Source of the DNA: Candidatus Omnitrophota bacterium
GTDB taxonomy: Bacteria; Omnitrophota; Gorgyraeia; Zapsychrales; Zapsychraceae
Assembly (NCBI GenBank): GCA_028280285.1
Contig: JANQMA010000042.1
Location: forward strand, 3,572 to 67,571
DNA length: 64,000 nt
Reading direction: 5' to 3'
The notes below the pieces were generated by a model. It was not told where the DNA came from, made no database searches, and saw nothing but the letters and a program-made list of their open reading frames with translations. Made by a program: the position numbers and the translations under genes. Shown piece after piece: positions 14,452 through 49,099 of the stretch (its first letter is position 1; every line of letters begins with the position of its first letter).

Positions 14452-14463
14452 GAGGTAGTTAAT

Positions 14464-15330: not shown

Positions 15331-15356
15331 GCTTAAGAAGAAGATAGAGGTTAAAT

Positions 15357-22565: not shown

Positions 22566-24081
22566 TAGAGGGCAGCGGGTAATAGTCGGTTTTATTATGC
22601 GCAATTTATATACAATTATAAATATTGTGATTGCCTTTTATATGATGCCGTTTATGTTGCATCATTTAGGCGACCGCATGTATGGGCTGTGGATTCTTAT
22701 GGGGTCTTTTGTCGGCTATTTCGGTTTTTTGGATTTAGGGTTTTCAAGTGCGGTGTCGCGTTATGTTGCAAGGGCTATTGGCAAGAATGATAAAGATGAA
22801 ATCAATGAAATCGTTAACACCGCATTTGTTGTATTTGTATGTCTCAGTATTATTTTAGTGATAGTTGTCAGTACTCTTGTTGTCAGCGCGGAACATATTT
22901 TTAAAGATTTTGAAGAGATAAAAGTTCTTCAAATTCTTCTTATATGTGTAGGGGTAAACCTTACATTCAGTTTCCCGGTGCGAGCGTTTACCGGCGTTAT
23001 AAACGGCAACCTTCAGTATAAAGTTTCAGAGACTATTATCCTTTCTGAGCTGCTTTTGAGGTATGGTTTAATATATATTTTCTTTAAACTAGGCTTCGGT
23101 ATTATATCACTTGGTGTAATTGTTTGTGCGGTGGCGCTTATTACACATGTGGCATGGATTATTAGTGCTTTTAAAGTCGATTCGAATCTTAAGCTTAATT
23201 TAAAATTATTTAATAAAGCGAGACTTAAGGAATTAACTTCGTTTAGTATTTATTCATTTATAAGCAGGATGGGCGACTTGCTCATTAACAAAACGGATGC
23301 TTTTGTTATTGCCGCCTTCTTGGGGCTAACGTTTAATGCTCACTATGCTATTCCTATTGTGCTAATGAGTTATATCAGCAATTTTATAAGCAAAATAGTG
23401 GGATTAATTGGTCCGGTTATTAGTCAAGATGATGGGCGCAATGACATCGAATCTATTAAACAAAAAATGTTTTTAACCATCAAAATAGTCGTTATTTTTG
23501 TCGTCTTTTTTACATCTTTGGCTGTATTCTATGGAGAGCATTTTATTGTTAGATGGGTGGGAAGTGAATACCGGGATGCTTATCCGGTTCTTGTTGTTCA
23601 TGCGATTACAGTGTTGGCATCAAATATTATGATGCCTGCGAATACAGTTTTATTCAACACATCACGGCATAAATATTTGGCAATTATTAAATCGATTGAA
23701 GCGGGATTTAATTTGATCTTAAGCTTAATCCTTGTGACTCGTTTAGGAATGGTGGGGGTTGCCCTTGGAACCTTAATACCGGTTTTGGTCATGAGATTAA
23801 TATTCCAGCCGGTCTATTTATGTAAGGAGTTTTCTATTTCATTTAAAAAGTATTATGTGGATACATTATTAAAAAATATGGTCATAGCGGCAGCACCTAT
23901 AGTAATAACATATTTTATTCTCAAAGATTTTGCAAAAGCTCAGTATCTCACATTGATTTTTATCGGGGCTATTCATGGGATCATTTATGCTGTATTTATT
24001 TGGTTTAAAGGGTTTAGTAATACAGAGCGCGGGTATTTCATGAAATATTTAAAGTTTCAAAAAACAGTTTCATCTGGGTAA
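22558..24081 (+). CDS. Wzx-type polysaccharide flippase (MOP superfamily)
   Basis: 507 aa with 12-14 TM helices and polysaccharide-biosynthesis-protein-like loops. Confidence 0.7.
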   Translation: MANRGQRVIVGFIMRNLYTIINIVIAFYMMPFMLHHLGDRMYGLWILMGSFVGYFGFLDLGFSSAVSRYVARAIGKNDKDEINEIVNTAFVVFVCLSIILVIVVSTLVVSAEHIFKDFEEIKVLQILLICVGVNLTFSFPVRAFTGVINGNLQYKVSETIILSELLLRYGLIYIFFKLGFGIISLGVIVCAVALITHVAWIISAFKVDSNLKLNLKLFNKARLKELTSFSIYSFISRMGDLLINKTDAFVIAAFLGLTFNAHYAIPIVLMSYISNFISKIVGLIGPVISQDDGRNDIESIKQKMFLTIKIVVIFVVFFTSLAVFYGEHFIVRWVGSEYRDAYPVLVVHAITVLASNIMMPANTVLFNTSRHKYLAIIKSIEAGFNLILSLILVTRLGMVGVALGTLIPVLVMRLIFQPVYLCKEFSISFKKYYVDTLLKNMVIAAAPIVITYFILKDFAKAQYLTLIFIGAIHGIIYAVFIWFKGFSNTERGYFMKYLKFQKTVSSG

Positions 24082-24086: not shown

Positions 24087-25223
24087 ATGGCAAAGCAAAA
24101 ACATATATTATTTTTACAACCGTATTTTTATAATCCAACGTTACCGAATTTTAAAGATCGGTTTGTTATGTTGTCTGAACAATATAGCGGACATATTATC
24201 TCATCTAATGAAGATCCATCCGGATATAATAAGTTGACTTTTGACAATTTCGTTTACCATTCTTTTCCCCGGGGGCAAAATAAAATAATTAAACACATTA
24301 AGAGAATTCTGTTTGCCTGTAAACTTGTTAAAAAGCTTCATGCAAAACATGAATTTGACTATATTCATGCTTATGATCCGCTATTTTTAGGGTTGGTTAG
24401 TGTCTTAGTTAAAAAGGCTACCCGGGCAAAACTGGTAGTTGAGATCAATGGCCATTTAAAGACGGCAGGGTTTTTACAAAAGAAGGGTTTATTGAGTTGG
24501 TTTAAAAAAATCGCTTATATTCAAACTGTCAAATATGTTATCAAGCATGCAGATATGATTAAATTTCTTAATGCCGATCAAATGGCAGAATGGAAAAAGG
24601 TTGTTAAGAATAAAAAAACAGTTATTTACCATGATTTTGTTCCGACCCATTTATTCGATCCATCACAATCAAAGGACGATCATTATGTCTTGCTCGTTGG
24701 ACATCCATTTCATATAAAAGGTGTTGATATTTTGATTAAAGCCTTTAATCAGATTTCATCAGAGTTTCCCAAAATAAAGCTGAAAATTGTGGGGTTTTGT
24801 CCCAATATACAGGAACGCAAAAAATACGTTGATATGACCGAAGGTAATGCGAATATTGAAATATTGAAACCGGTTGATTACGGTGCAGTAATGACATTGT
24901 TTCAACGCTGCACATTTTTTGTTTTACCGTCACGTACGGAGGCTATGGGACGTGTCCTTATTGAAGCCATGGCATCGGGCAAATCTGTTATTGGCTCGAG
25001 GACAGGAGGTATTCCCAGGTTAGTCAAAGACGGTGAGAACGGTTTTTTATGCCAAAAAGAAAATATAGCAGAGTTGGCCCAAAAGATGAAAGAATTATTG
25101 CAGAATAATGGGTTACGGCAAAATATGGAAAACAAAAGCGTTGCATTAGTTAAAGAGCAGTTTTCCTCTGAACGATATGTGGGCTGTTTTAACAGCATGA
25201 TTGAGGAGTTAGGCCATGCGTAA
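24087..25223 (+). CDS. Family-4 glycosyltransferase
   Basis: LPSRTEAMGRVLIEAMASGKSVIGSRTGGIP...GFL. Confidence 0.7.
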   Translation: MAKQKHILFLQPYFYNPTLPNFKDRFVMLSEQYSGHIISSNEDPSGYNKLTFDNFVYHSFPRGQNKIIKHIKRILFACKLVKKLHAKHEFDYIHAYDPLFLGLVSVLVKKATRAKLVVEINGHLKTAGFLQKKGLLSWFKKIAYIQTVKYVIKHADMIKFLNADQMAEWKKVVKNKKTVIYHDFVPTHLFDPSQSKDDHYVLLVGHPFHIKGVDILIKAFNQISSEFPKIKLKIVGFCPNIQERKKYVDMTEGNANIEILKPVDYGAVMTLFQRCTFFVLPSRTEAMGRVLIEAMASGKSVIGSRTGGIPRLVKDGENGFLCQKENIAELAQKMKELLQNNGLRQNMENKSVALVKEQFSSERYVGCFNSMIEELGHA

Positions 25224-26481
25224 TTTAAATACAATCGAAAAAAGCAAGACGCCTGTTCAGAATTTTCTATTTATCACGTTTTTGTTTTTTTTATATGTGC
25301 GTATTTATGAAAATTTCTTATTTCTTATTCCATTTCAATTAACGCGTATTTTTATGCTGCTGGCAATGGCCGGTTTTATTATGAAAGCAGGCAACAGTGC
25401 GTTTCATAAAAAACCTTTGATTAAAGAAAACACAATGAAATGGTTTTTGATTTTGCAATTAATGACGATCGCATCGGTTGTTTATTCTGTATGGGCGGCG
25501 AACACTATTAATAAGTTTATAGCGACCAATGTCCGTATTATTATTACATTTGTTTTGTTTGCCAGTTTACTTTATAACAAAAAACAGGTGCAGCTTTTTG
25601 TGAAGACGATTTATTTCTGCATGTTCTTTTTTTCAATTCGCATATTTTTAGCCTTTAAAGCTGGCAGCTATATTTTTGACAGTGGCACTAAACGGATTGT
25701 TGGCGTCGGGACGCTTGCTTCGTCTGACCCTAACGATGTAGCGCTTGTTATGGGAATGACAATACCGCTTGGCCTGCACTATCTTATTGTGAAAAAAGGA
25801 ATGAAACGAATTTTTTATCTGGGATTATTTTTAAGTATATTGTGCGCCCTTGTTGTGACCGGTTCCAGAGGAGGATTGTTGGGGCTTGGTATGGGAACTA
25901 TTACCTTTTTTGCCATGCTTTACCGCAAACAAAAAGCAAAATTTGTTGGCATAATAGCATTATTGTTGATGGTTGCTGTTGTGTTTTTGCCGCAGCAATA
26001 TAAAAATAGGTTTATGTCTATGTTTAATGAACAAGAATATTCGCATACAGATCAGCGGCATGGACGTGTTGCTGTGTGGAAAAGAAGTTTTAATGCATTT
26101 ATGAAACGCCCGATCGGATATGGAGGAGCCAATTCTGTTATCGCGGAAGGGGGCGTTAAGCGGGCACAGGGGGTTACAGGAAAATGGATGGTTATACACA
26201 ATTCCTATTTACAAATGGGCTTAGAGATTGGTGTTTTGGGGCTGATCATCTATTTGATGTTTCTTAAATCCGGTTTTGATAATCTCAGGTATGTGATTAA
26301 TAAAACGGGTGCAAATAAGGACCGGGAAAGTGAAGTCCTCGCGTGTGCATTAATTGGCGGTTTGACAGCTTTTTTGGTGTCAGGAATGTTTTTATCGCAG
26401 GCCTATAATTGGAATCCTTATATTTATATTGTCCTTGCGATGGGACTTAAACGGAGTATTGAGCAGCAATATGGAAAATAA
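25216..26481 (+). CDS. Wzy-type polymerase / O-antigen-ligase-like membrane protein
   Basis: About 10 TM helices and a Wzy_C-like loop TGSRGGLLGLG...HNSYLQ. Confidence 0.55.
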   Translation: MRNLNTIEKSKTPVQNFLFITFLFFLYVRIYENFLFLIPFQLTRIFMLLAMAGFIMKAGNSAFHKKPLIKENTMKWFLILQLMTIASVVYSVWAANTINKFIATNVRIIITFVLFASLLYNKKQVQLFVKTIYFCMFFFSIRIFLAFKAGSYIFDSGTKRIVGVGTLASSDPNDVALVMGMTIPLGLHYLIVKKGMKRIFYLGLFLSILCALVVTGSRGGLLGLGMGTITFFAMLYRKQKAKFVGIIALLLMVAVVFLPQQYKNRFMSMFNEQEYSHTDQRHGRVAVWKRSFNAFMKRPIGYGGANSVIAEGGVKRAQGVTGKWMVIHNSYLQMGLEIGVLGLIIYLMFLKSGFDNLRYVINKTGANKDRESEVLACALIGGLTAFLVSGMFLSQAYNWNPYIYIVLAMGLKRSIEQQYGK

Positions 26482-27619
26482 TATGCAAAAAACGAATGTT
26501 CTTTTTATGCTGCCGAATTTTGATACGGGCGGATCTGAAAAATTGGTTGTCGATATCGTTTCTCGTCTTGACCGCAGTAAATTTTCACCGGTTGTGTGTG
26601 TGTTCTTTTCCGGGTTTTATGAAAATAAGATCAGAGAACTAAATATTCCGTTTTATGTCATTCATAAGGACAAGATTCGCTCAAAACTGGCAACGGCCCT
26701 GTTTATTAACGATATCATCAAAAAACATAAGGTTGATGTTGTGAATACTCATCATGCCAGTCCGCTTATCCAGGGTATTATTCCATTTAAGCTGCTTAAT
26801 CGTGTTAAGTGGATTCACACCGAACACACACGTTTGGATCTTGATCCGAATATTACACCGTGGATTTTGATGATTGAAAAAATATGTCTTAGGTTCGTTG
26901 ATATTTGTTTGGGTATTTCAGATGGTGTGTGTGATTACTTTGCAAACGAACTTAAGGTCAATAAAGACAAAATCAAAAAAATTTATAACGGGGTTGATGT
27001 CAGTCGTTTTATTTGGGATGCAAGTGAGTCTAATATGTTAAAAGAAAAATACCGCAAAGATATAAATATTGATGCACAGAAAGTTGTTATTGGAACTTTT
27101 GCTAATTTTCGCGAACAAAAAAACCATAAATGTCTAATCGAGGCCATACACAAGATAACGGAGACAGGATGCAATAACTTCCACCTGGTGCTTCCAGGTA
27201 GTGGTCCTGAAAAAGAAAAAATTGAACAACAAGTGTGTGACTTAAAGCTTGCATCAAAGGTGAGTTTTCTAGGTCCACGATCAGATATTCCTGAACTAAT
27301 GAATATGATAGATATTTATTGCCTGCCGTCTTTTTTTGAGGGGCTGCCATTTAGTTTGATTGAGGCGGCTGTTGCCGGCAAACAGGTTATTGCGACTGAT
27401 GTGATCGGTAACAGAGATGTTGTTAAGGCTATGGGGCGTGGTCAGCTGGTCCCATCTGATGATTCCAAAATGCTGGCCGATGTTTTGGTTGCGGCTATTC
27501 ACACCCATGGTGAAGAGAAACCAAATACTGATTGGCGGCCGGATAAACAATACACAATGGATGGGATGATGGAATCCTACGCGGCGTTGTTTAAAGGGGA
27601 GTTTACTAATGGTTTATAG
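26471..27619 (+). CDS. Family-4 glycosyltransferase
   Basis: LPSFFEGLPFSLIEAAVAGKQVIATDV. The likely start is MENNMQK at 26471; the ORF is open from 26429. Confidence 0.6.
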   Translation: MENNMQKTNVLFMLPNFDTGGSEKLVVDIVSRLDRSKFSPVVCVFFSGFYENKIRELNIPFYVIHKDKIRSKLATALFINDIIKKHKVDVVNTHHASPLIQGIIPFKLLNRVKWIHTEHTRLDLDPNITPWILMIEKICLRFVDICLGISDGVCDYFANELKVNKDKIKKIYNGVDVSRFIWDASESNMLKEKYRKDINIDAQKVVIGTFANFREQKNHKCLIEAIHKITETGCNNFHLVLPGSGPEKEKIEQQVCDLKLASKVSFLGPRSDIPELMNMIDIYCLPSFFEGLPFSLIEAAVAGKQVIATDVIGNRDVVKAMGRGQLVPSDDSKMLADVLVAAIHTHGEEKPNTDWRPDKQYTMDGMMESYAALFKGEFTNGL

Positions 27620-28586
27620 CCTTGTCTTTGTTAGAATTTTAGCGATAGTTTTAATTGTCAACGAGCATCTTTCTTCTTTTTATCCGGATCCGCGTTTTGC
27701 TTGGGGAGGGTATATCGGTAATGGTCTTTTTTATCTTATATCAGGCTACGGACTCACCTTAACGCAAATGCGAAAACCTCTTAACGTTTTTAACTGGTAC
27801 AAAAAGCGGCTTTTAAAAATCCTTATCCCATTTCTTTTTTATATATTTGTCCTTCATTTCGGTGATTGGGCGAAAATCATTTGGACGATTAAACATAACT
27901 TGATTATCACAAGCGTCGAGCAGCTAGGTTATTTTTTCGGGGTGCTCTGGATTTTGTATCTTTTATTTTTGCCGCTTAATCAACTGAGTACAAAAAATTT
28001 AATACGTGGATTAGGATTGTTTGCGGGGTATGTCCTTATTTCTATGATCTTTAAGATTCAACAGATCGAAGGCGTTGTTCCGAAAAACTTAGCAACAACT
28101 GAACTTAACTTTCTGTATAGCGGTATTATCTGTTTTATGCTGGGAATGATTAGTGCGCGAAAAAAAGTGGATCAGATCTTTTCCGATAATCCGCGGCTAT
28201 ATGGATTATTAGCCGTTGTATTTATATTGGGTACACAGATTTTGCACCGTATTTTATATAAGATTAATGATCATTTAATCTTTTTCAATTTTTTCTTAAG
28301 TATAATGTGTATCTTTGGGGTTTACATGCTTTTTAGTCTGCCGTGGACGCATATTTTTGAAAAAATAATTCAGCCACTTCATGCTATTGCTGGTTCATCA
28401 TTGGCGGTCTATTTTGTGCATTTTTTTATGATGAAAACAGTCGCACATTTAGGGATTGCCTTTCCCTATAATGTGATCGCTGTTTTTATGTATTCATTTA
28501 TTTTTGCGTATCCTTTAACACGCATAGCAGTGGCTATTTCTGACTGGGTTTTGGGCGGTTTGGATAGAATGAAGCGAGAGAACTAA
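27609..28586 (+). CDS. Acyltransferase-3 family membrane O-acyltransferase (OafA-like)
   Basis: N-terminal FVRILAIVLIVNEHL...GGYIGNGLFYLISGYGL and about 10 TM helices. Confidence 0.6.
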   Translation: MVYSLVFVRILAIVLIVNEHLSSFYPDPRFAWGGYIGNGLFYLISGYGLTLTQMRKPLNVFNWYKKRLLKILIPFLFYIFVLHFGDWAKIIWTIKHNLIITSVEQLGYFFGVLWILYLLFLPLNQLSTKNLIRGLGLFAGYVLISMIFKIQQIEGVVPKNLATTELNFLYSGIICFMLGMISARKKVDQIFSDNPRLYGLLAVVFILGTQILHRILYKINDHLIFFNFFLSIMCIFGVYMLFSLPWTHIFEKIIQPLHAIAGSSLAVYFVHFFMMKTVAHLGIAFPYNVIAVFMYSFIFAYPLTRIAVAISDWVLGGLDRMKREN

Positions 28587-28587
28587 T

Positions 28588-29709
28588 ATGAAAATTCTAT
28601 GTATATTTTCAAAGGTATTAGGTGGTAAGACCGTTTCAGCGTATTTCCAAAATATTTTGGATAATATGACCGGTGTTAAACCAACCTATTTTTTTCTGGA
28701 GCCTGGAGATTATAGCAAATACAAGGTATCATCCATTAGCAAAGTGTTGGGCAGTACGGCTGAGACGCTGAGTGTGTTTAAACAAAAATGGCGTGCAGAA
28801 GGCATTGATACCAGCGGTTATGATGCGCTTTTCTTTCAAAGCTATGAACTGACTGCTCTTTTTCGAAAAGAAATTCAATCAATGCCTACTCTGATGCGTG
28901 TGGATACAACGCCGGTGTTGGCTCAAGGGTTAGTGCGTCAGGAGACTGATTCATTGTTTAAAAAATTGAGATCTCATGTGGCCCAGGTTTGGATGAATAG
29001 TGTTTACGGAAATATTTTCACACATATCGATCATATTTTAACCGCCACAGAGTGGGCAAAATCGTCTTTTGTTAGAGATTACAAAATTAATCCTGAAGCT
29101 GTTACTGTGTCTTATCCGGCGAGGGATTTGGATATTTGGAAGCCGCTTGCTAATAAGCCGGTTAACGGGCCTAAGGTACTTTTATTTGTCGGTAATGATT
29201 TTAAGCGTAAAGGAGGCGAATTTTTAATTAAACTTTATCAAAAGCATTTAAAAGGAAGATATAAATTGAGGATTATATCCAATGATGCCATGCTTACTAA
29301 GTTTGAGCAGATAGAAGGTGTTGAGATTCTGCGGGGGATAGGGCACCAGGATTTAGGGCATTTTATCAAACAATATCAAACAGCCGATGCCTTTATTTTT
29401 CCAACATTAAGAGAACAATTAGGCATAGTCTTAACCGAGGCATTATCAGCCGGCCTGCCTGTTGTGGCACGTAATGTTGGTGGGGCGGGGGATGTGGTAA
29501 AAAACGATTATAATGGCTATTTGCTTGATTATGAGGCAGACATAGATCAATGGGCGCGGGTGATCGATGCTGTATGTGAAAATGAGCAAAAACACCAGGA
29601 AATGTCAAAAAATAGCAGAAAATTGGCAGAGCAGATGTTTAATCGCAAAACTAATGCTGAAAATATTTGTCGGATAGTGTATTCTTTAGCAGGATACAAA
29701 GATGATTAA
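28588..29709 (+). CDS. Family-4 glycosyltransferase
   Basis: FPTLREQLGIVLTEALSAGLPVVARNVGG...GYLL. Confidence 0.65.
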   Translation: MKILCIFSKVLGGKTVSAYFQNILDNMTGVKPTYFFLEPGDYSKYKVSSISKVLGSTAETLSVFKQKWRAEGIDTSGYDALFFQSYELTALFRKEIQSMPTLMRVDTTPVLAQGLVRQETDSLFKKLRSHVAQVWMNSVYGNIFTHIDHILTATEWAKSSFVRDYKINPEAVTVSYPARDLDIWKPLANKPVNGPKVLLFVGNDFKRKGGEFLIKLYQKHLKGRYKLRIISNDAMLTKFEQIEGVEILRGIGHQDLGHFIKQYQTADAFIFPTLREQLGIVLTEALSAGLPVVARNVGGAGDVVKNDYNGYLLDYEADIDQWARVIDAVCENEQKHQEMSKNSRKLAEQMFNRKTNAENICRIVYSLAGYKDD

Positions 29710-30493
29710 AGAAGGTCTGAAAAATTTGTTATGGCTTCTGCCTTATGAGATAAGGCGTTCGATAAGTATTCTTAAGAATTACGAATACTACCAGCTTTTA
29801 CAAACAAGACGTAAAACAGTTTACGCGGAAGGGTATTCCCTTAAAGGTTTTGATGAAAATAAGTGCATTTTTATTCATATCCCTAAAACGGCAGGCATAT
29901 CTTTATGTCAAAGTTTGTTTGGTAATTTTGGTCCCGGTCATTTAAATATTCAAACCTATCAACTCATATATAATAGAAATGAATTTGACAAATATTTTAA
30001 ATTTACTTTTGTAAGAAACCCATGGGATAGAGTTGTTTCTGCCTATTATTTTCTTAAAAAAGGTGGGCGGAGTGCTGCAGATCAAAAATGGGCAGATGAA
30101 AATTTAGCGCAATACAAAGACTTTGAGTCTTTTATCCTGGGTTGGCTTAATGCTGAAAATATTGATACATTTGCGCATTTTGTTCCTCAATACAAATATC
30201 TATGCAGTCCTTTAAGCAAGCATCCTATTGTAGATTTTCTTGGTTATTATGAGCATTTAGCGAGTGATTTTAAATACATATGCAATAAGATTGGAATTAA
30301 AGTTGACCTGCAAGAGTTGAATACTACCAAAAATGATCGGCGAGATTACAAAAATTATTATACAAATGAGACGAAACAGATTGTTGAAAAATTATACAAA
30401 AATGACATTGAGTTATTTGGTTACACATTTGATAATGCGTCACTACCGAGCCAACTAGCAAAGCGGGATAAGTTATATGTGGATAGAAATTAA
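29702..30493 (+). CDS. Sulfotransferase (Sulfotransfer_2/3-like, PAPS-dependent)
   Basis: 5'-PSB motif IFIHIPKTAGISL and 3'-PB motif FTFVRNPWDRVVSAYYF. Confidence 0.65.
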   Translation: MIKEGLKNLLWLLPYEIRRSISILKNYEYYQLLQTRRKTVYAEGYSLKGFDENKCIFIHIPKTAGISLCQSLFGNFGPGHLNIQTYQLIYNRNEFDKYFKFTFVRNPWDRVVSAYYFLKKGGRSAADQKWADENLAQYKDFESFILGWLNAENIDTFAHFVPQYKYLCSPLSKHPIVDFLGYYEHLASDFKYICNKIGIKVDLQELNTTKNDRRDYKNYYTNETKQIVEKLYKNDIELFGYTFDNASLPSQLAKRDKLYVDRN

Positions 30494-33359
30494 GCGCATC
30501 ATACAAGTTTTATTAGTCGGAGCCGTTGTTTGTTTTGCGACAAACGCTTCTGCCCAAGGGTCGCAAAAAGCTGTTATTCAGTTTACGGTTAACGGAAAAA
30601 GTGATCCGCGCATCTTAAATACGGGTAATCCTATTACATTGTACCGTGTTGAAAATTCTAAAAGGGTCTCAACAGGTATAAAATCTCCGATTTCACCTAA
30701 ATCGTCTGTTGAATTTGATTTACCGGATACAAAAAGCAAATACCTGCTGCAATTTTCCATTGCGGGAAGTAGTACACCCGTATTCAGTAAGCCTATTCAG
30801 CCCGGGTTTCAAAAACTTGATTTGCCCATTGCGCATATTAAATTACAGGGTGATCAATCTACTCTGAGTGAATATGTGAATAAAAACGTCTATCTATTTA
30901 CCAAAGATAGCGGTAAGTACAAAAATTTATGGCAGAAATCTAAAATATTTAAGACGGGTGAGTTTTTTATTTATCTTCCCGGTGATGCTGATTATGTAGC
31001 AGGGGTTGAGCTTAAACACCGCCAATACCTGTATTCCGGGCCGCTTAAGGCCGGGGTTCAAAAGTGGGATCCTAAGGCAAACCGTCCTCCTGTGATCAAT
31101 ATTATTGAAAAACAGACTATTCATGCTGATGATAAGGTTAACATTAAATTAACCGCATCTGATATAGATAAAGACACACTTGAGCTGAAACTTTTACAAG
31201 CCCCGGACTTTGTTTTACTCAGGGATTGGCATGATAACGCAGGCTCTTTAGTTTTTCAACCAAAGGTCAAGGATAAGGGTAAATTTGAAATAATATATGG
31301 GGTTTCTGATGGAGAGCATTTAACAAAACATAGTTTTGAGCTTGTTGTTAGGGGGGCTCAAAATACAATCGCTGAAACGATTAATGATACTTTTTCCAAT
31401 ATTGTTGGCAAGAAAGAAAAGCATGGTCCGGCAATTTCAGCGATATGGGTTAATAATGGAGAAGACAAGGTAACACAAGATGAACTACGCAAATCAAAAG
31501 GGTATGATGTTACGAGTAGTGTGTGGGATGGCACAAACATTAAATTATTCGGCGCGCGTAATGAAATGGTTAATTTTAATCTTATTATCGAGGCCGCTAA
31601 GCACGATGCTGAAGAGGTTAGTGTTGAGCTTGATGGTTTAATTGGACCGGAAGGATTTGTTATTTCATCACGTCAAGCTAATAAAGATGACCCGTTTGAT
31701 TTTATTAATCGTAATATCGAATTATTTTTTGTCCGCTATCTACAAATTCTGGGTGTCAGCCAACTGGCGTATAATCCGCAGTACGATGAGCGGCATGTGC
31801 CGGCAAAATTACGGCTTCCTTTTTCCAGTAAAAATGGGAAGTCCAGAGGGAAATGGGAAAATAGGCCTAACGCCAATAAGTATTATCCCGATATTGCTGT
31901 TCCTTTAGAGGTGATAGGAAGTTTTCCTATTGCGGCCAAATCTAATCAAAGTATTTGGGCGGATATTTACATTCCGCGCAATGCGCCTGCAGGTACTTAT
32001 CACGGGACGGTTAAAGTATTTGAGTCCAATAAGCAATTTAAAGAAATTCCTCTTGCGCTTAAGGTCATTGATTTTACACTACCGGATGAATCGACAGCCA
32101 AAACAATGGTTTATTTTAATGAAGAAAATCTCAATGACAGATATTTTGGAAAAAAGTGGCCGATATTTGATCAAGAGCCGCTTGTACGCCAAAAACAAAT
32201 GGCCCAGGTTTGGTATAATCATCATAAGGTTGCCCATAGGCATAAGATTTCTTTAATTGATGATGGCAAGTCAATCAATCCCGGACGTATAGGTGATCAC
32301 CTGCCGTGGGGTAATGCAAAATGGATGCCGGTACTAAACGGGGAGCTTTTTACCGATCAGTATGGTTATCAAGGTCCCGGGGAAGGTGTGTCGAGTGGTG
32401 TTTACTCGATCGGAACATACGGAGGATGGAAAAGAGGCTGGGATGAAGAAAATAAAGAAGATCTGTGGAAAAAGTCTGACCTTTGGGTAACATGGTTTGA
32501 TGAGGTTTTTCCGAATGTGGAATATTTTCTCTATTTACTGGATGAGCCCAAAAGAGGCGCTTATGAAAAAGTTGAGCGTTGGGCTCGTTGGATTGATGAG
32601 AATCCTGGTCCAGGGAGGAGGCTTAAAACTTTAACAACGGGAAAACTGCAAGAAGTCTATTATCACATGCCGTCGGTTGATATTGCTTTTACATGGTGGG
32701 GTGATAAAGAAAAATATGCGCCTATTGTTATGGATTATTTAAAGAGCGGTAAGCCGTACTGGGCCTATAATGGGCACCGTCCGTGGGCGGGCAGTTATGC
32801 GATTGAAGATGAAGGTGTTGCTATGCGGACATGGGGATGGATTCAGTTTAAACATACAGTGGCCCGTTGGTTTTATTGGCAGGCAACGCATTACAAAAAT
32901 TCTTCCTATATCCGAGAAGAGACAAATGTGTTTGAAACGGCTTGTACATTCGGTCGTTGTAATGATAGTTGGAAAGATAAGTATGGCAAAACCGGGCATA
33001 ATTATAATAACGGGGACGGTGTTTTGTTTTATCCGGGGATTGAAAGGCGCTATCCGCAGGATAGTTATGGACTGTTAGGTCCGATTACTAGTTTGCGCCT
33101 TAAGCATTGGCGACGGGGTATTCAGGACCATGATTATTTAACTATGGCGGCACAATATGACCCTCAAAAAGTGAAGGGTATTGTGCAGCGCATAATCCCT
33201 AAGGTGCTTTGGGAAGTGGGTGTAACTGATCCCAAAGATCCCTCTTATGTGCATGCAGATATTAGTTGGTCGATTAATCCGGATGTATGGGAAAAAGCTC
33301 GACGTGAACTAGCAGAAATTATTATTAAAGGGCAAAGCAAGGATAATAAAAATGGATAA
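30477..33359 (+). CDS. Large secreted multidomain protein of unknown function; cadherin-like Ig domain plus a W/Y-rich C-terminal region that may be glycoside-hydrolase-like
   Basis: Signal peptide ending NASAQG. Ig-like segment [35 protein letters not shown]. The C-terminal region is rich in conserved W/Y/G: [23 protein letters not shown]. Confidence 0.45.
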
Positions 33360-33969
33360 AGAAATACAAAAAAATATCATTCCTCATGATGCAATTATTA
33401 ATAAGAACCATCGACGGAAATTAAATCATCATGGATCAGCGGTATTATGGTTTACAGGATTATCAGGTTCGGGTAAATCTACCATCGCACATAATTTAGA
33501 GTCAGCTTTGTATGAACGTGAAGTAAGAACATATGTTTTGGATGGAGATAATGTGCGTACCGGGCTTAATAAGGGTTTGACTTTTTCTCCCGAGGACCGT
33601 AAAGAAAATATACGCCGTATTGGTGAGGTATCAAAATTATTTATGGATTGTGGAATCTTTTTGCTGACGGCATTCATATCACCCTATAGGGAAGACAGGC
33701 AATTTGTACGGTCCCTGGTTGAGTCAGGAGAGTTTATTGAGATTTATGTTAAGTGTCCAGTTGAGGTGTGCGAAAAACGTGATGTCAAAGGTCTTTATAA
33801 AAAGGCACGTGATGGTGAAATCAAGAATTTTACCGGAATCAGTGCGCCATATGAAGAGCCTGAGTCTGCTGAAATCTTAATCGATTCGGATGCGATGACA
33901 CTTGAAAAAAGTGTGGAAGTGATTATTGAATATCTGGAGCAGAATGGCTACTTGGAAATAAAGGGATAA
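33352..33969 (+). CDS. cysC: Adenylyl-sulfate (APS) kinase
   Basis: P-loop [16 protein letters not shown] and [11 protein letters not shown]. 205 aa. Confidence 0.85.
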
Positions 33970-34032: not shown

Positions 34033-35148
34033 ATGAATATATTACATTTAAGAAGTAGTGGCGGGATGTTCGGCGCTGAGGGTGTTATTTTAAATCTTTC
34101 GCGTGAACTAAATGAGTTTGGACATAAAAATCATATTGTCTGCCTGCGTAATACCAAAAACCCACACACCGAACTGGTTGATGCGGCACACACCCTGGGT
34201 TTAAATGCTGAGGCTGTAGACTGCAAAGGGCGTATTGATTTTAAGGCGATTAAAGAAATACGTGCGATTATTGATGAGAAAAATATTCAGGTTATTCATT
34301 GTCATGATTATAAAGCAAATATGCACGGCGTTTTGGCGGCACCGGCCAATGTTAAAAAAATAGCGACGAATCATTTATGGACCAGTGAAACAATGCTTCT
34401 ACGGTTATATGAAATCATCGATGGTGTGATGGCCAATAGCTTTCATCGTGTGATCGGGGTATCTGATAAAATTACTATACAAGTAAGGCGGTATTTACTT
34501 GATAAAAAAAGAGCACAGACAATATATAATGGCATTGACCTTGATTACTATAGAAGCGATGGTAAGGCTACAGGAGTGTTGCGTACACAATCGGCCTTGA
34601 CCGATAAGCACTTTGTTTTAGGTGCGGTTGGGCGGTTGTCGGTGCAAAAAGGCTATCCTTATTTATTACAGGCTCTTAAATTATTAAAAGAGGAGTTTCC
34701 TCAATTAAGACTTATTTTTGTGGGTGATGGGGACCAGCGTGAAAAATTACAAGCTGAGGTGAAGCGTCTAGGGCTTGAAAACATGGTTTACTTTGCGGGG
34801 ATACAAAAAAATATGTTGGATGTCTATAGATCGGTTGATGTTTTAACGATGTCATCTATTGCCGAAGGGCTGCCGCTTGTATTGCTTGAGGCCTTGGCTA
34901 TGCGGTTGCCTGTTGTAGCAACAAAAGTTGGTGCTATCGGGAAAGTTATAGATAATCGGGTGACTGGCCTGTTGTGTGAGGCCGCAGATGTAAAGGTCCT
35001 TGCACAACAGATTAGATGTGTTATCCTTGATGAAAATTTACGCCAAACAATCACAGCAAATGGCCGCAAGCTTATGGAAGAAAAGCTGTCCTCAGAGGCC
35101 ATGGCGAGACAATATGAGCAGGTATATAATGAAGTATTGAACAATTAA
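34033..35148 (+). CDS. Family-4 glycosyltransferase
   Basis: MSSIAEGLPLVLLEALAMRLPVVATKVG...GLL. Confidence 0.7.
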   Translation: MNILHLRSSGGMFGAEGVILNLSRELNEFGHKNHIVCLRNTKNPHTELVDAAHTLGLNAEAVDCKGRIDFKAIKEIRAIIDEKNIQVIHCHDYKANMHGVLAAPANVKKIATNHLWTSETMLLRLYEIIDGVMANSFHRVIGVSDKITIQVRRYLLDKKRAQTIYNGIDLDYYRSDGKATGVLRTQSALTDKHFVLGAVGRLSVQKGYPYLLQALKLLKEEFPQLRLIFVGDGDQREKLQAEVKRLGLENMVYFAGIQKNMLDVYRSVDVLTMSSIAEGLPLVLLEALAMRLPVVATKVGAIGKVIDNRVTGLLCEAADVKVLAQQIRCVILDENLRQTITANGRKLMEEKLSSEAMARQYEQVYNEVLNN

Positions 35149-35151
35149 CTT

Positions 35152-35253
35152 GTGTTCAGTGTTCTAGATAGGCAAACCGATGAATGGTGTTCAGTGTTCT
35201 GATAGAGCACTGAACACGAAATTTCTAAATTTGGTAAGAACACAGAACACTAT
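35152..35253. repeat. Intergenic cluster of GTGTTCAGTGTTC / GAACACAGAACAC units (two direct copies plus inverted copies)
   Basis: tgtgttcagtgttc ... ggtgttcagtgttc ... gcactgaacacg ... gaacacagaacac. Confidence 0.6.
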
Positions 35254-35264
35254 TTCTATATATT

Positions 35265-36458
35265 ATGAATATTTTATTCGTTACAAAAGAACTGCCGCAT
35301 CCGGTCAACAATGGCCATCGTATGCGTTCGATCAATATCTTAAAGGGTATTGCCGAAGGTAATACGATCGATATTGTCTGTATGGGGCAAGAAGATCAAA
35401 TGAGTGAGGCAAAAGTGGCATTAAAATCTTATTACCGCAATTTAATCGTTGTGCCGATGCGGCCGGATGATTTGCCCTATAAGCTGTGGACATTGATTAA
35501 AAGCATTTTCAGTTATCGCGCTTATTCTGTGCTACTGCGTCATTGCCAAAAAATGCGTACACTCATAGAAGAGCTTTGTGAGAATAATAATTATGATTGC
35601 ATTGTCAGCGATGGTATTCACATGATGGTTAATATTCCCAATACAGGGACAAAGACTATTTTATCCGAGCATAATATTGAATCGATGATTATTAAACGTT
35701 ATGCAGACGTGGCAACCGGTATTAAAAAATGGTTTGCTGATTTTGAACACCGTAAGATGAGTTCATACGAGGAGCTTACCTGGGCGCGAAGCGACGCTGC
35801 GTTTGTCTGTTCTGAAGATGATAAAAAATATGTGTGTGAGGTTATGCCGAGTGATGAGGTTTTTGTTGTGCCTAATGGAGTAGATGTTGACAATTATGAA
35901 ATCCGTAAAGGTGTAACAAAGGTAGCGAATAGTCTTATTTATACCGGTCTTATGGGATGGGCGCCGAATGAAGATGCTGTGTGTTATTTTGCCGAAGAGA
36001 TTTATCCGCTTATTAAGAAAGAAATACCGGATGCCCGGTTTTCGATTGTCGGGAAAGGGCCGAAGGAGCGTGTCATGGCTTTGGCCAATAAGGATCGGTC
36101 TATTCATGTTACAGGCTTTGTCGATGATATTCAAAAATATATGTGTGAAGCGGATGTATTTGTTGTGCCTATTCGTATCGGAAGCGGGACGAGACTAAAA
36201 ATACTTGAGGCTTTATCCCTTCAAATGACAATTGTTTCTACGTCAATAGGGTGTGAAGGTATAGAAGTTACTAACGGAGAAAATATTCTTATTAAAGACT
36301 CCCCACAGGGATTTGCCGATGCGGTGGTAGATGTTTTTAAAAACAGAGATAAATATAAAGATTTAGGCGTTAACGGACGAAAGCTAGTTGAAAAAAAATA
36401 TAGTTGGACGAAAGTCCGTCAGGATTTAAGTGAATATTTAAGACAATTAAATAATTAA
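35265..36458 (+). CDS. Family-4 glycosyltransferase
   Basis: VPIRIGSGTRLKILEALSLQMTIVSTSIG...ILI. Confidence 0.7.
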   Translation: MNILFVTKELPHPVNNGHRMRSINILKGIAEGNTIDIVCMGQEDQMSEAKVALKSYYRNLIVVPMRPDDLPYKLWTLIKSIFSYRAYSVLLRHCQKMRTLIEELCENNNYDCIVSDGIHMMVNIPNTGTKTILSEHNIESMIIKRYADVATGIKKWFADFEHRKMSSYEELTWARSDAAFVCSEDDKKYVCEVMPSDEVFVVPNGVDVDNYEIRKGVTKVANSLIYTGLMGWAPNEDAVCYFAEEIYPLIKKEIPDARFSIVGKGPKERVMALANKDRSIHVTGFVDDIQKYMCEADVFVVPIRIGSGTRLKILEALSLQMTIVSTSIGCEGIEVTNGENILIKDSPQGFADAVVDVFKNRDKYKDLGVNGRKLVEKKYSWTKVRQDLSEYLRQLNN

Positions 36459-36469: not shown

Positions 36470-37828
36470 ATGAATATATGTATTGTTGGAACAGGTTATG
36501 TGGGTTTGGTTACAGGGACATGTTTGGCCGATTTTGGTCACACTGTTGTCTGTGTTGATAACAATAAAGAAAAAATTGATATGCTCAACAATGGCGGCAT
36601 TCCTATTTATGAAATCGGTCTTAAGGAACTTATCGATCGTAATGTTAAAGAAAAACGTTTAAGTTTTACAAATGATTTAAAAAAAGCGGTTGAACAGTCG
36701 ATTGCTGTTTTTATTGCCGTAGGGACACCGCCGAAGCAAGATGGTTCGGCTAACCTAGAATATGTTTTTGATGTTGCCCGGGAAGTAGCGCAGCACATTG
36801 ACGGATATAAAGTTGTAGTAACAAAAAGCACTGTGCCTGTTGGGACGGGCAAAAATGTTTATAAGATTATCAGTGAAGAATTGGACAAACGCACATCAGC
36901 TGACTACTTAAAAGACCATCCTGAGGAGTCGGGCAAGAAATTTAGATTTGATGTTGTCTCCAATCCTGAATTTTTGCGTGAGGGTTCAGCCATTGAAGAT
37001 TTTATGCGTCCGGATAGAGTCGTTATTGGATCAGAGTCGGATAGTGCGATCGCGATTATGCAGGATATTTACCGCCCGCTTTATTTATTTGAAACGCCGA
37101 TGGTTATAACGAACATTGAGACATCGGAATTAATTAAATACGCGGCGAATGCGTTTTTAGCGACGAAGATTTCATTTATTAACGAAATGGGACATTTATG
37201 CGAGCGGCTTGGCGGTACGATTGATGATTTGGCTAAAGGGATGGGGCTTGATAAACGGATTGGATCTAAATTTTTACATGTTTCGCCGGGTTATGGGGGC
37301 TCATGTTTCCCTAAGGACACAACGGCGGTTGTTGATATTGCTCGGAATGTCGATTTCGATTTAAAGGTGGTTCAGGCGGCTGTCGAAGCCAATCAGCGCC
37401 AGAAAGAGATGATGGTTGATAAAATTGAAGCGGCAATGGGCGGAAGCCTTGATGGCAAGACCATCGGTATCCTCGGACTTGCGTTTAAACCTAATACTGA
37501 TGATATGCGCGAAGCGGCCAGTATTACTATTATCGAGGGACTGAAGGAAAAAGGCGCTAAGGTGCAGACCTTTGATCCGGTGGCAATGGATGAGGCAAAA
37601 AAATGCATTGGGGACATTGATTATCTGGAAGATGCCTATGCTGTGGCGAAAGATGCTGATGCTATTGTACTTTTGACCGAGTGGAATGAATTTCGCATGC
37701 TTGACTTAGGTAAAATTAAGGAGCTTCTCAAAACTCCTGTTTTTGTGGATTTAAGAAATGTTTATGATGCTGAACGCATGAAGGCTTTAGGATTTGTTTA
37801 TGAATCTTTGGGGCGGGGGAAGATATAA
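36470..37828 (+). CDS. ugd: UDP-glucose 6-dehydrogenase
   Basis: MNICIVGTGYVGLVTG Rossmann motif and catalytic GGSCFPKD. 452 aa. Confidence 0.85.
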   Translation: MNICIVGTGYVGLVTGTCLADFGHTVVCVDNNKEKIDMLNNGGIPIYEIGLKELIDRNVKEKRLSFTNDLKKAVEQSIAVFIAVGTPPKQDGSANLEYVFDVAREVAQHIDGYKVVVTKSTVPVGTGKNVYKIISEELDKRTSADYLKDHPEESGKKFRFDVVSNPEFLREGSAIEDFMRPDRVVIGSESDSAIAIMQDIYRPLYLFETPMVITNIETSELIKYAANAFLATKISFINEMGHLCERLGGTIDDLAKGMGLDKRIGSKFLHVSPGYGGSCFPKDTTAVVDIARNVDFDLKVVQAAVEANQRQKEMMVDKIEAAMGGSLDGKTIGILGLAFKPNTDDMREAASITIIEGLKEKGAKVQTFDPVAMDEAKKCIGDIDYLEDAYAVAKDADAIVLLTEWNEFRMLDLGKIKELLKTPVFVDLRNVYDAERMKALGFVYESLGRGKI

Positions 37829-39836: not shown

Positions 39837-40468
39837 TGAATAAAAATGTTATCACCACAACTATCATCATTTTACTTTTAGCTTTTTCAGGCTATATTTC
39901 ATGGAATTTCTATTTCAAGGAATATAATGCTGCCGATACCGTTAATATCCATCTTTTTCCGAAAACAATTGGTGAATGGGAATCGACTGAGTTGGTCGTA
40001 ACAGAAAAAGAAAAAGCCATTTTAGAGACCGATAATGTGTTCGTGCGAAATTATTTGACAAAATCGGGGAAAAAAGTACAATTGTTCATAGTTTATTCCC
40101 AGAGCAACCGCAAGGTTAGCCATCCGCCTGAAGTTTGCTATACAGGTGGAGGGATTTCGATCTTAGAAAAAAAGAAGACTCCGCTTCAAACAGGTGAAAC
40201 AAACTTTAACGCAATCCAAATGCTCATGGAGCAAGGACCAAATAAGCAGTATGTGTACTATTGGTTCAAAGTAGGAGACTCCTTTACGCCTAATTATTGG
40301 CAACAACAATTATTGATTGCCACTAAATCGCTTTTGAAACAGCCTTCAAGTAGTGCGCTGATCCGCGTTTCGGCGTATATTGGTAATAATGGTGGAGAAA
40401 AGGCGAAAAAAGACGTTGAGGAATTTATCCAGTTAATTCAGCCTGAATTAGCTACATATCTGCCCTAA
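39836..40468 (+). CDS. EpsI-family exosortase-associated protein
   Basis: N-terminal TM, motif KTIGEWES, about 200 aa. Its start overlaps the exosortase stop, consistent with translational coupling. Confidence 0.65.
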   Translation: MNKNVITTTIIILLLAFSGYISWNFYFKEYNAADTVNIHLFPKTIGEWESTELVVTEKEKAILETDNVFVRNYLTKSGKKVQLFIVYSQSNRKVSHPPEVCYTGGGISILEKKKTPLQTGETNFNAIQMLMEQGPNKQYVYYWFKVGDSFTPNYWQQQLLIATKSLLKQPSSSALIRVSAYIGNNGGEKAKKDVEEFIQLIQPELATYLP

Positions 40469-44914: not shown

Positions 44915-44916
44915 CT

Positions 44917-49095: not shown

Positions 49096-49099
49096 AGTA

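Follow-up and report, generated by a model that had tools for sequence, protein, structure and literature searches.

Predicted sulfation genes in an exosortase-linked Wzx/Wzy polysaccharide locus of a Candidatus Omnitrophota bacterium

Gene content and architecture of the locus

The window, a 64-kb stretch of Candidatus Omnitrophota DNA, carries a polysaccharide locus with the following features (window coordinates).

12331-16142, + strand: export/chain-length module comprising a Wza-like exporter, PCP, PEP-CTERM-locus ATPase and tyrosine autokinase (profile matches)
22558-24081, + strand: Wzx-type flippase (Polysacc_synt/MatE)
25216-26481, + strand: Wzy-type polymerase (Wzy_C, 89.7 bits)
27609-28586, + strand: Acyltransferase-3 O-acyltransferase, an accessory decoration gene in a variable slot (PF01757, 69.8 bits)
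28588-29709, + strand: GT4 glycosyltransferase directly 5' of the sulfotransferase gene (Glycos_transf_1, 96.9 bits)
29702-30493, + strand: Sulfotransfer_2 sulfotransferase (ST), 263 aa (Pfam PF03567, 76.2 bits against a cut-off of 22, E 5.8e-21)
30477-33359, + strand: GH123-type beta-N-acetylhexosaminidase-like protein, predicted to be secreted, 960 aa (Pfam, PDB profile, Foldseek)
33352-33969, + strand: adenylyl-sulfate (APS) kinase CysC, 205 aa (Pfam APS_kinase, 232.5 bits)
34033-36458, + strand: two GT4 glycosyltransferases 3' of CysC, backbone genes (Pfam; synteny)
36470-37828, + strand: UDP-glucose 6-dehydrogenase, uronic-acid precursor supply (three UDPG_MGDP_dh domains; TIGR03026, 461.7 bits)
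39018-40468, + strand: exosortase and EpsI (Exosortase_EpsH, 224.9 bits; DUF3485/EpsI, 128.1 bits)
40786-41631, + strand: priming polyprenyl glycosylphosphotransferase (Bac_transf, 228.7 bits; TIGR03025, 308.1 against a cut-off of 295.55)
41746-42573: PEP-CTERM proteins
42698-43465: FkbM methyltransferase (family-level match)
43472-44914: MBOAT protein (family-level match)
44830-45855: 341-aa ORF following the MBOAT gene, matching no Pfam or NCBIfam family

An earlier, sequence-only reading had placed ST and CysC within a glycosyltransferase cluster. This setting holds, and the cluster is more specifically a Wzx/Wzy locus linked to an exosortase/PEP-CTERM system. In common with PEP-CTERM/exosortase EPS loci, as represented by the TIGRFAM/NCBIfam models of the XrtA system, it contains an exosortase, EpsI, PEP-CTERM proteins and a locus-type ATPase, together with a chain-length determinant, a tyrosine kinase, an exporter and a sigma-54 regulator pair. 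NCBIfam cut-offs were exceeded at 39018-40468 (TIGR02602, 172.6 against 105.55; TIGR02914, 110.8 against 42.8), and the exosortase scored under every subtype cut-off (XrtA, 181 against 208; XrtD, 202 against 400). The Acyltransferase-3, FkbM and MBOAT proteins and the UDP-glucose dehydrogenase named in the earlier reading were confirmed at the family level, whereas its "AlgJ-like" label for the 341-aa ORF found no support in Pfam or NCBIfam.

Stop and start codons of consecutive genes overlap by 8 nt between GT4 and ST, by 17 nt between ST and the GH123-like gene, and by 8 nt between the latter and CysC. Such overlaps point to co-translation of the four genes.

The sulfotransferase, the APS kinase and the GH123-like protein

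The assignment of ST as a Sulfotransfer_2-type enzyme with PAPS-binding motifs was borne out by its Pfam score and by the motifs HIPKTAG (residues 59-65) and RNPWDR (residues 105-110). A PSB lysine and a PxxRxxS motif are the defining features of this family, and the PF03567 members characterized so far are carbohydrate-polymer sulfotransferases (PMC11625862). Both the PAPS-binding lysine in HIPKTAG and the PxxRxxS motif (RNPWDRVVS) were invariant in an alignment of 38 homologues, with K62, G65, S67, P107, R110 and S113 unchanged throughout. Homologues in which all PAPS-binding residues are invariant share 43-53% identity. Members of the subfamily are named in databases only as "hypothetical protein" or "sulfotransferase family 2 domain-containing protein".

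The AF2 model of ST (pLDDT 94.3) was compared with the PDB using Foldseek, and the top 50 matches were, with no exceptions, PAPS sulfotransferases, HS6ST among the fold matches. The model is a confident one of the sulfotransferase fold, with weak TM-scores (0.3-0.4) to solved sulfotransferases. A PDB sequence search with ST gave no match, because identity to the eukaryotic Sulfotransfer_2 enzymes is too low. With these enzymes (the chondroitin/dermatan CHSTs, HS2ST and HS6ST) ST shares the Pfam family, the PSB lysine and the PxxRxxS 3'-phosphate-binding motif; they are Golgi type-II membrane proteins acting on finished chains, whereas ST is a small soluble bacterial protein. Neither a transmembrane segment (maximum KD19 1.22) nor a signal peptide was found in ST, which is predicted to be a soluble, cytoplasmic enzyme that O-sulfates the repeat unit with PAPS as donor.

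CysC contains the Walker A motif GLSGSGKST and exceeded the cut-offs of two NCBIfam models (NF003013, 295.5 against 163; TIGR00455, 271.9 against 138.7). By its family membership at the equivalog level, it is a canonical APS kinase, which would convert APS to PAPS. The earlier description of a stand-alone CysC with no adjacent ATP sulfurylase stands: among ORFs of at least 150 aa in the window, there was no match to ATP sulfurylase, CysD/CysN, PAPS/APS reductase, CysQ or a sulfate permease. That CysC exists solely to supply PAPS for the polymer does not follow, as a missing neighboring sulfurylase is insufficient to show exclusivity. The nearest relatives of CysC (73-81% identity) are stand-alone genes within or beside polysaccharide genes (L090, L091, L172 and L173); no sulfurylase was in view in L090, L091 or L172, and the flank of L173 was partly searched.

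The gene between ST and CysC accounts for two thirds of the interval 29702-33969 (2883 of 4268 bases) and was absent from the earlier account of that interval. In its product, a signal peptide is accompanied by three Ig-like beta-sandwich domains (one of them Big_9/cadherin-like) and by a GH123-type module that combines a beta-sandwich with a TIM barrel. Pfam matched Glyco_hydro_123_N_2 (36.8 bits) and Big_9, and a profile of the protein matched PDB entry 8k2f (E 3.7e-21). For the AF2 model (pLDDT 85.6), the top 22 Foldseek matches were all GH123-type enzymes, including NgaCa (8k2g; E 1.2e-30, target TM 0.75). The fold is that of GH123-type beta-N-acetylgalactosaminidases, especially the Group 1 enzyme NgaCa (Sumida et al. 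2024, PMC11087588), and a consecutive Asp-Glu pair, common to NgaCa-type enzymes (PMC11087588), is invariant here in 32 homologues (D689-E690). Unlike the known GH123 enzymes, which are catabolic, this protein is encoded and conserved in a biosynthetic EPS cluster, and it has the three additional N-terminal Ig-like domains. It probably acts outside the cytoplasm, trimming the polymer or cleaving it at a beta-HexNAc linkage.

Conserved backbone and accessory genes

A backbone of Wzx-GT4-Wzy-GT4-[variable]-GH123-like-GT4-GT4-GT2-exosortase-EpsI is common to loci L004-L009, L092 and L094-L101. Wzx is syntenic in L006, L008 and L095 (42-45% identity), the GT4 gene at 28588-29709 has a 38%-identical counterpart at the matching position in L095, and counterparts of the two GT4 genes at 34033-36458 come directly after the GH123-like gene in related clusters. 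Neither ST nor CysC occurs in any of these syntenic clusters, and a set of 80 metagenomic loci collected around the GH123-like gene contains neither of them. A SAM methyltransferase fills the slot of ST in L095, the closest cluster (61% identity), and L005-L007 carry a methyltransferase, a pyruvyl transferase and a GT2 at this variable position. Since they are absent from clusters that share the backbone, ST and CysC are, by this gene-order comparison, accessory "decoration" insertions, while the GH123-like gene is a conserved core gene of the cluster type that lies outside the sulfation chemistry. The "dedicated sulfation branch" is accordingly not one contiguous module; two single-gene insertions flank a conserved gene. 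The UDP-glucose 6-dehydrogenase gene is likewise an accessory insertion relative to L008, and nothing equivalent to the acyltransferase at 27609-28586 is present in L008 or L095, both of them syntenic loci.

Among 80 genome loci of the ST family, 50 have a glycosyltransferase or polysaccharide gene within 10 kb, and co-location with CysC is rare (2/80). In a Desulfomicrobium MAG (L012), a Sulfotransfer_3 gene, Wzy, GT4, an ST homologue (43% identity), a CysQ-like gene and a Sat-CysC fusion adjoin exosortase/EpsI. In an Anaerolineales MAG (L022), GT2, GT4 and an ST homologue occur with a TauE/SafE-family transporter, a candidate sulfate/sulfite carrier, and a Sat-CysC fusion. These two MAGs are unrelated, and both pair an ST homologue with a sulfurylase-CysC fusion. 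ST relatives also occur in Vibrio and Cobetia genomes (L020 and L080).

A proposed sulfation route, its alternatives and known systems

We propose, with a probability of roughly 0.65, that the two inserted accessory genes together sulfate the polymer of this exosortase/PEP-CTERM-linked Wzx/Wzy EPS locus. APS would come from an ATP sulfurylase encoded elsewhere, outside the window, and CysC would phosphorylate it to PAPS. ST would then place a sulfuryl group donated by PAPS on a sugar hydroxyl of the undecaprenyl-diphosphate-linked repeat unit under construction, at the cytoplasmic face and before flipping; a lipid-linked cytoplasmic acceptor is favored because PAPS is confined to the cytoplasm and ST has neither a signal peptide nor a transmembrane segment. 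Wzx would flip the unit and Wzy polymerize it, with export of the chain by the PCP/tyrosine kinase and Wza-like proteins. Gene content thus indicates that the secreted polymer is probably sulfated. This core of the sequence-only reading is supported by family membership, invariant motifs, the fold model and gene overlaps, and further by the absence of both genes from syntenic clusters that carry other decorating enzymes, by ST homologues beside Sat-CysC and by the polysaccharide loci of the closest CysC relatives.

A narrower explanation retains ST as a polysaccharide-decorating enzyme and takes CysC as the ordinary, sole APS kinase, also serving assimilatory sulfate reduction, which would leave a dedicated branch of one gene. 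As the window encodes neither a sulfurylase nor CysQ nor a permease, CysC could simply be the genome's only copy. In the clusters whose supply is clearly dedicated (L012, L022, Vibrio and Cobetia), a sulfurylase is present too, PAPS is made elsewhere for 78/80 ST homologues, and the closest CysC relatives are likewise stand-alone at various loci, so a stand-alone CysC is normal for the lineage. We nevertheless regard this explanation as unlikely, given that CysC is translationally coupled into the cluster by its 8-nt overlap, is missing from every syntenic cluster lacking ST, and has its nearest relatives repeatedly among polysaccharide genes. By a rough, inferred estimate, in a genome of a few Mb a single-copy gene would fall within 3 kb of one particular gene by chance in about 0.2-0.3% of cases.

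It is rather improbable that ST acts instead on a different acceptor, such as a glycolipid, a glycan on PEP-CTERM proteins, a nucleotide sugar used elsewhere or a small molecule. The acceptor sugar and sulfation position are not readable from sequence, some ST homologues lie in non-polysaccharide contexts (L002 and L003), and PEP-CTERM proteins, which are thought to be glycosylated, are encoded nearby. Bacterial sulfotransferases of known acceptor also include the glycolipid enzymes NodH and Stf0 (PMC11625862). Against this, ST overlaps a GT4 gene and occupies the slot that methyl, pyruvyl and acyl decorating enzymes take in syntenic clusters, most of its homologues lie near glycosyltransferase or polysaccharide genes, and its characterized family members act on carbohydrate polymers. 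The uninformative database names of the subfamily would also allow an ST-like protein that is inactive or catalyzes another reaction, with the adjacency of CysC meaningless; the intact ORFs, the PAPS-binding residues invariant at 43-53% identity, the high-confidence ST model and the equivalog-level CysC make this highly improbable.

In the rhizobial nodPQ-nodH system, a dedicated ATP sulfurylase/APS kinase adjoins the sulfotransferase that consumes PAPS. The window would share this design principle of a second, pathway-dedicated sulfate-activation gene co-located with its sulfotransferase; NodPQ, however, includes a sulfurylase, and the NodH acceptor is a lipo-chitooligosaccharide signal rather than a polymer. 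NodH, the comparator chosen earlier, also belongs to the wrong family, Sulfotransfer_3 (PF13469) and not PF03567 (PMC11625862). For the capsules of Vibrio sp. KMM 8419 and Cobetia marina KMM 1449, sulfate is chemically proven, and their clusters, with extra cysDNC and sulfotransferases, led to sulfotransferases and PAPS genes within a cluster being called a hallmark of sulfated polysaccharide synthesis (PMC11641403, PMC11766843). The window shares the sulfotransferase and PAPS-synthesis gene, but these capsules use ABC-transporter (Kps) export rather than Wzx/Wzy with an exosortase, and their supply comprises cysD, cysN and cysC, plus cysQ and a permease in Cobetia (PMC11641403, PMC11766843). 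Of the PAPS turnover enzymes, the window encodes CysC only, unlike L012, L022, Vibrio and Cobetia. The Synechocystis xss cluster for synechan, compared by description, is also a Wzx/Wzy-dependent EPS system with embedded sulfotransferases, for which sulfation on the lipid-linked repeat unit is proposed, as here; PF03567 is one of the families in cyanobacterial EPS clusters (Maeda et al. 2021, PMC8205485). Unlike the window, xss is cyanobacterial and plasmid-borne and has neither an exosortase nor a GH123-like gene; the description consulted mentions no PAPS-supply gene in it (PMC8205485). No paper tying a sulfotransferase to a PEP-CTERM locus was found in the literature searched. The arrangement of a sulfotransferase and a PAPS gene in a polysaccharide cluster is already known in other bacteria, and the window provides a new example of it.

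Predicted sulfation genes within the polysaccharide locus

The polysaccharide locus runs as a single plus-strand array from ~12.3 to 45.9 kb. Judged by its predicted gene content, it belongs among the Wzx/Wzy loci of exosortase/PEP-CTERM type.

Gene order of the plus-strand polysaccharide locus
Wza-like exporter, chain-length determinant, PEP-CTERM-locus ATPase, tyrosine autokinase
TupA-like ATP-grasp protein, four GT4 glycosyltransferases
Wzx, GT4, Wzy, GT4
Acyltransferase-3, GT4, sulfotransferase, 960-aa protein, CysC
Two GT4 genes, UDP-glucose dehydrogenase, GT2
Exosortase, EpsI, priming glycosylphosphotransferase, PEP-CTERM protein
FkbM methyltransferase, MBOAT acyltransferase

The exosortase and EpsI matched TIGR02602 (172.6 against a cut-off of 105.55) and TIGR02914 (110.8 against 42.8), respectively, and the PEP-CTERM protein (ORF 41746-42573) matched PF07589 (33.6 against 20.7). 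The exosortase fell below the cut-off of every named subtype, XrtA (181.3 against 208), XrtD (202.4 against 400) and XrtW (187.9 against 425) included. Exosortase, EpsI and priming transferase are 55-61% identical to an Omnitrophota-labelled contig. The priming glycosylphosphotransferase (40786-41631) is short (281 aa), and its residues 63-81 carry a near-threshold PEP-CTERM motif (20.0 bits against 20.7), a faint match shared by its homologue in a syntenic cluster (L009). ORFs of 341, 478, 383, 309 and 288 aa had no Pfam match (44830-45855; 45852-48427, minus strand; 21636-22565; 55645-56511). The first of these, which follows the MBOAT gene, had been called AlgJ-like, a label for which Pfam offers no match; the 309-aa ORF has the same position as weak GT-like proteins in syntenic clusters.

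The sulfotransferase sits between Wzy and the exosortase in the same-strand array, where it is followed by two further genes:

29702-30493 (+), sulfotransferase, 263 aa, Sulfotransfer_2 (PF03567)
30477-33359 (+), GH123-like gene, 960 aa, secreted GH123-type beta-N-acetylhexosaminidase-like protein
33352-33969 (+), CysC, 205 aa, adenylyl-sulfate (APS) kinase

The sequence-only reading had described the interval 29702-33969 as a sulfotransferase plus CysC. Both are present, with Sulfotransfer_2 and APS_kinase matches above cut-offs, but the third same-strand ORF between them had been left out. Adjoining genes overlap (upstream GT4 and sulfotransferase, 8 nt; sulfotransferase and GH123-like gene, 17 nt; GH123-like gene and CysC, 8 nt), a pattern typical of co-translated operon genes. 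At 0.324, the GC content of the sulfotransferase gene is lower than that of its two neighbours (0.39 and 0.41); since this value falls inside the spread of the cluster (0.32-0.44), nothing can be concluded from it on horizontal transfer.

The sulfotransferase matched PF03567 with 76.2 bits (gathering cut-off 22; E = 5.8e-21). A database search returned 2514 relatives; among the best 120, all carry PF03567 and the closest non-self match is 55% identical. Sulfotransfer_2 proteins are defined by a 5'-phosphosulfate-binding strand-loop-helix with a conserved lysine and by a 3'-phosphate-binding PxxRxxS motif (PMC11625862). In an alignment of 38 sequences, H59, K62, A64, G65 and S67 are invariant in the phosphosulfate-binding loop (IHIPK62TAGIS), as are R105, N106, P107, W108, R110 and S113 in the PxxRxxS motif (RNP107WDR110VVS113). 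An AlphaFold2 model generated from this alignment (mean pLDDT 94.3, pTM 0.90) places the phosphosulfate site on strand 55-58, a loop and helix 65-73, and the 3'-phosphate site on strand 99-104 and then helix 107-119. Searches of PDB sequences with the single sequence and with the 38-sequence profile gave no meaningful match. With a maximum 19-residue Kyte-Doolittle mean of 1.22 and no stretch able to span a membrane, the protein is taken to be cytoplasmic. By family membership, and with its binding motifs intact, it is a predicted PAPS-dependent carbohydrate sulfotransferase; NodH is assigned to another Pfam family (PMC11625862).

CysC and the supply of PAPS

CysC scored 232.5 bits against Pfam APS_kinase and exceeded, at equivalog level, the cut-offs of two NCBIfam adenylyl-sulfate kinase models (NF003013, 295.5 against 163; TIGR00455, 271.9 against 138.7). 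Its P-loop is intact as read from the translation ([14 protein letters not shown] and AFISPY). The firm part of this analysis is that the sulfotransferase and CysC belong to their families, retain their catalytic motifs and are both built into the operon.

Every ORF of at least 150 aa across the 64-kb window was scanned with Pfam, and no ATP sulfurylase, CysD/CysN, APS/PAPS reductase, CysQ-type phosphatase or sulfate permease was found among them. CysC is accordingly the only PAPS-biosynthesis gene of the cluster, and the observation that no ATP sulfurylase adjoins it extends to the whole window. What had been concluded from that observation, namely that CysC likely exists solely to supply PAPS for polymer sulfation, does not follow, because sulfurylase-free neighbourhoods are normal among CysC relatives. 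The best named database match is 73% identical (Omnitrophota), and the closest relatives (73-81% identical) are stand-alone genes. Four relatives were examined in their gene context.

Gene neighbourhoods of four CysC relatives
L090: adjoins GT4 and methyltransferase genes
L091 (Omnitrophica MAG): surrounded by WecG, epimerase and CapK-like genes; a CysQ-like gene lies 2.6 kb off
L172: directly follows priming transferase, exporter, Wzz and cupin genes
L173: one of a tandem kinase pair, adjoining a sugar nucleotidyltransferase and a cupin gene

The annotated flanks of L090, L091 and L172 contain no sulfurylase; that of L173 is covered in part. A stand-alone CysC without an adjoining sulfurylase is therefore normal for the lineage, and sulfurylase absence alone is no evidence of dedication. 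The four neighbourhoods themselves favour a polysaccharide-linked role for the CysC clade. Examples of a second, pathway-dedicated APS-kinase copy are nodQ and the extra cysC of Vibrio KMM 8419. A small cupin (MannoseP_isomer/Cupin_2, ~125 aa) lies directly beside the closest CysC relatives on two metagenomic contigs (L172, 7108-8140; L173, 5891-7481), and the L173 stretch holds its two APS-kinase genes in tandem.

The GH123-like gene and the adjoining slot

The 960-aa protein consists of a signal peptide, three Ig-like beta-sandwich domains (one of them a Big_9/Cadherin_5 match), a linker and a 640-residue module. When the model of this module (pLDDT 85.6) was compared with the PDB using Foldseek, the best match was NgaCa (8k2g; E = 1.2e-30, target TM 0.75) and the top 22 matches were all GH123-type. 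The matched fold is that of GH123-type beta-N-acetylgalactosaminidases, an N-terminal beta-sandwich plus a (beta/alpha)8 barrel. The gene also matched PF22680 (36.8 against a cut-off of 27), and a profile of 32 homologues matched 8k2f among PDB sequences (E = 3.7e-21). GH123-type enzymes have a consecutive catalytic Asp-Glu (DE) motif, and one solved relative prefers GalNAc-4-sulfate (PMC11087588). D689-E690 (in LLDEP), invariant in the 32 homologues and located directly after predicted barrel strand 682-688 in the model, is consistent with a catalytic DE pair and is our candidate for it; the HMM alignments leave this region uncovered. The best named match is 58% identical (Omnitrophota).

Syntenic clusters that combine Wzx/Wzy with an exosortase occur as one type in several phyla (L004-L009, L092, L094-L101), with the GH123-like gene in their conserved core. 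This gene exists in two lengths, ~945-960 aa for the long form, which has three Ig-like domains at the N-terminus, and ~650-700 aa for the short form. Its catalytic module is ~47-61% identical across Desulfovibrionales, Omnitrophota, Chloroflexota and even a Bathyarchaeia-labelled protein, and many relatives of 48% identity have surroundings without a match to any window cluster protein.

Homologues of this gene lie in clusters that keep one backbone order: Wzx, GT4, Wzy and GT4, then a variable region, then the GH123-like gene, GT4, GT4, GT2, exosortase, EpsI and priming transferase. Such clusters were found on an Omnitrophota-labelled contig, in Pseudodesulfovibrio mercurii and in several metagenomes, and none of them contains the sulfotransferase or CysC. 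A part for the GH123-like gene in the sulfation chemistry was rejected because the gene is kept in all syntenic clusters that lack sulfation genes. The three genes were likewise rejected as a conserved trio: with the GH123-like gene as anchor, neither the sulfotransferase nor CysC occurs at any of 80 metagenomic loci, and with the sulfotransferase as anchor, the GH123-like gene is found at 0/80 loci listed.

Contents of the variable region between the GT4 gene that follows Wzy and the GH123-like gene
Window, 27609-30493: acyltransferase-3, GT4, sulfotransferase
L095 (closest relative cluster, 61% identity), 5303-7957: SAM-dependent methyltransferase exactly at the sulfotransferase position; second methyltransferase-like ORF at the acyltransferase-3 position
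L005-7 (L005, 4726-7620): methyltransferase, pyruvyl transferase, GT2
L008, 7905-10023: GT2, GT4

As the contents differ between clusters, the sulfotransferase occupies a position used elsewhere by other polysaccharide-decorating enzymes, and this region is an exchangeable decoration slot. CysC was inserted separately, as one gene, beyond the conserved GH123-like gene.

Homologues of the sulfotransferase were also located in species-representative genomes, yielding at least 80 loci from many phyla, the best of which is 48% identical among the matches listed. A glycosyltransferase or other polysaccharide gene lies within 10 kb at 50 of 80 loci, and at 39 of the 54 loci that span at least 15 kb (raw counts from tblastn with window proteins). 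General co-location of the family with CysC was rejected, an APS kinase being near the homologue at 2/80 loci listed (L012 and L022). At L012 (Desulfomicrobium sp. MAG JBFWJY010000013.1, 6551-16202), Sulfotransfer_3, Wzy and GT4 genes are followed by the homologue, a CysQ-like phosphatase and an ATP-sulfurylase/APS-kinase (Sat-CysC) fusion; past the fusion come one opposite-strand gene and then exosortase and EpsI. This locus is an exosortase-linked Wzx/Wzy cluster with a complete sulfation set, which includes one sulfotransferase from each of the Pfam families Sulfotransfer_3 and Sulfotransfer_2. At L022 (Anaerolineales MAG), GT2, GT4 and oxidoreductase genes precede the homologue. Behind it come a transporter of the TauE/SafE family, which is a candidate carrier of sulfate or sulfite, then a universal stress protein and a sulfurylase/kinase fusion. 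Both loci are independent instances of this arrangement, and each has a more complete supply set than the window.

Proposed sulfation, precedents and surroundings

To our knowledge, bacterial sulfated polysaccharides are few, with a handful of clusters tied to a chemically defined sulfated polymer. Chemical analysis has established sulfated capsule structures for Vibrio sp. KMM 8419 and Cobetia marina KMM 1449, and the clusters of these strains contain sulfotransferases and extra cysD/N/C genes, with cysQ and a permease also in Cobetia (PMC11641403, PMC11766843). PAPS genes together with a sulfotransferase are a hallmark of sulfated polysaccharide synthesis according to the authors of the Vibrio paper (PMC11641403). 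The window agrees in having a sulfotransferase within a polysaccharide cluster, whereas its PAPS supply is CysC alone. A putative sulfotransferase-containing EPS cluster has been reported from Pontiella (PMC7356697).

We propose that APS would be made elsewhere and converted to PAPS by CysC, and that, ahead of flipping by Wzx, the cytoplasmic sulfotransferase would add sulfate to a hydroxyl group on the repeat unit carried by undecaprenyl diphosphate. A beta-HexNAc linkage would be the target of the secreted GH123-like enzyme at a later step outside the cytoplasm. Experiments have established cyanobacterial EPS clusters with sulfotransferases, and the model proposed for the synechan cluster matches the sulfation of a lipid-linked repeat unit suggested here (PMC8205485).

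A full-text search for literature combining sulfotransferase, exopolysaccharide and PEP-CTERM found no paper. Sulfated-polysaccharide clusters with PAPS genes and a sulfotransferase are already published, and the window locus is therefore a further example of a documented arrangement, distinguished by its link to an exosortase, its lone CysC and a host that is uncultured. With it, the signature of a sulfotransferase plus a PAPS gene covers Wzx/Wzy clusters linked to exosortase/PEP-CTERM systems, as well as an uncultured lineage. The conserved backbone with its exchangeable slot for methyl-, pyruvyl-, acyl- or sulfate-adding enzymes provides a practical handle for both mining and engineering decorated polysaccharides. 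Current understanding is not overturned by any of these results.

It is conceivable, and in our estimation improbable, that the product of the cluster is a sulfated polymer resembling glycosaminoglycans, composed of hexosamine, uronic acid and sulfate, and that its maker is an uncultured anaerobe, possibly Omnitrophota-related. The ingredients are a PF03567 sulfotransferase, UDP-glucose dehydrogenase, GalE and a conserved secreted beta-N-acetylgalactosaminidase-type enzyme, and the family of the sulfotransferase includes chondroitin/dermatan sulfotransferases. Sulfated glycosaminoglycan-like material has been reported from anaerobic granules and sediments, where its producers are unknown (PMC7356697); if such a polymer were made here, exosortase-linked clusters with a plug-in slot beside the GH123-like gene would be a possible source.

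A sigma-54 gene (10322-11686, minus strand) lies just upstream of the locus, and a GAF-histidine kinase and sigma-54-dependent response regulator lie downstream (57427-60187, plus strand); these are likely cluster regulators. The response regulator scored 410 bits against the PEP-CTERM-box regulator model (cut-off 502). An IS1595-family transposase ORF (49328-49975) is located between the EPS locus and a MacB/LolA-like ABC export module (48424-52198). Also downstream (52234-55558), a FeeM-like GNAT of the N-acyl amino acid synthase type precedes an 864-aa fusion of AMP-binding enzyme, carrier-protein domain and acyltransferase, and the two may form a lipid or acyl-modification module. Upstream of rpoN, a second glycan-related gene set (1431-10315) comprises GT2, a GT87-like membrane protein, DUF547, a methyltransferase and a truncated-looking GT2, along with DUF2064, acyltransferase-3, GT4 and a dTDP-glucose 4,6-dehydratase-like SDR.
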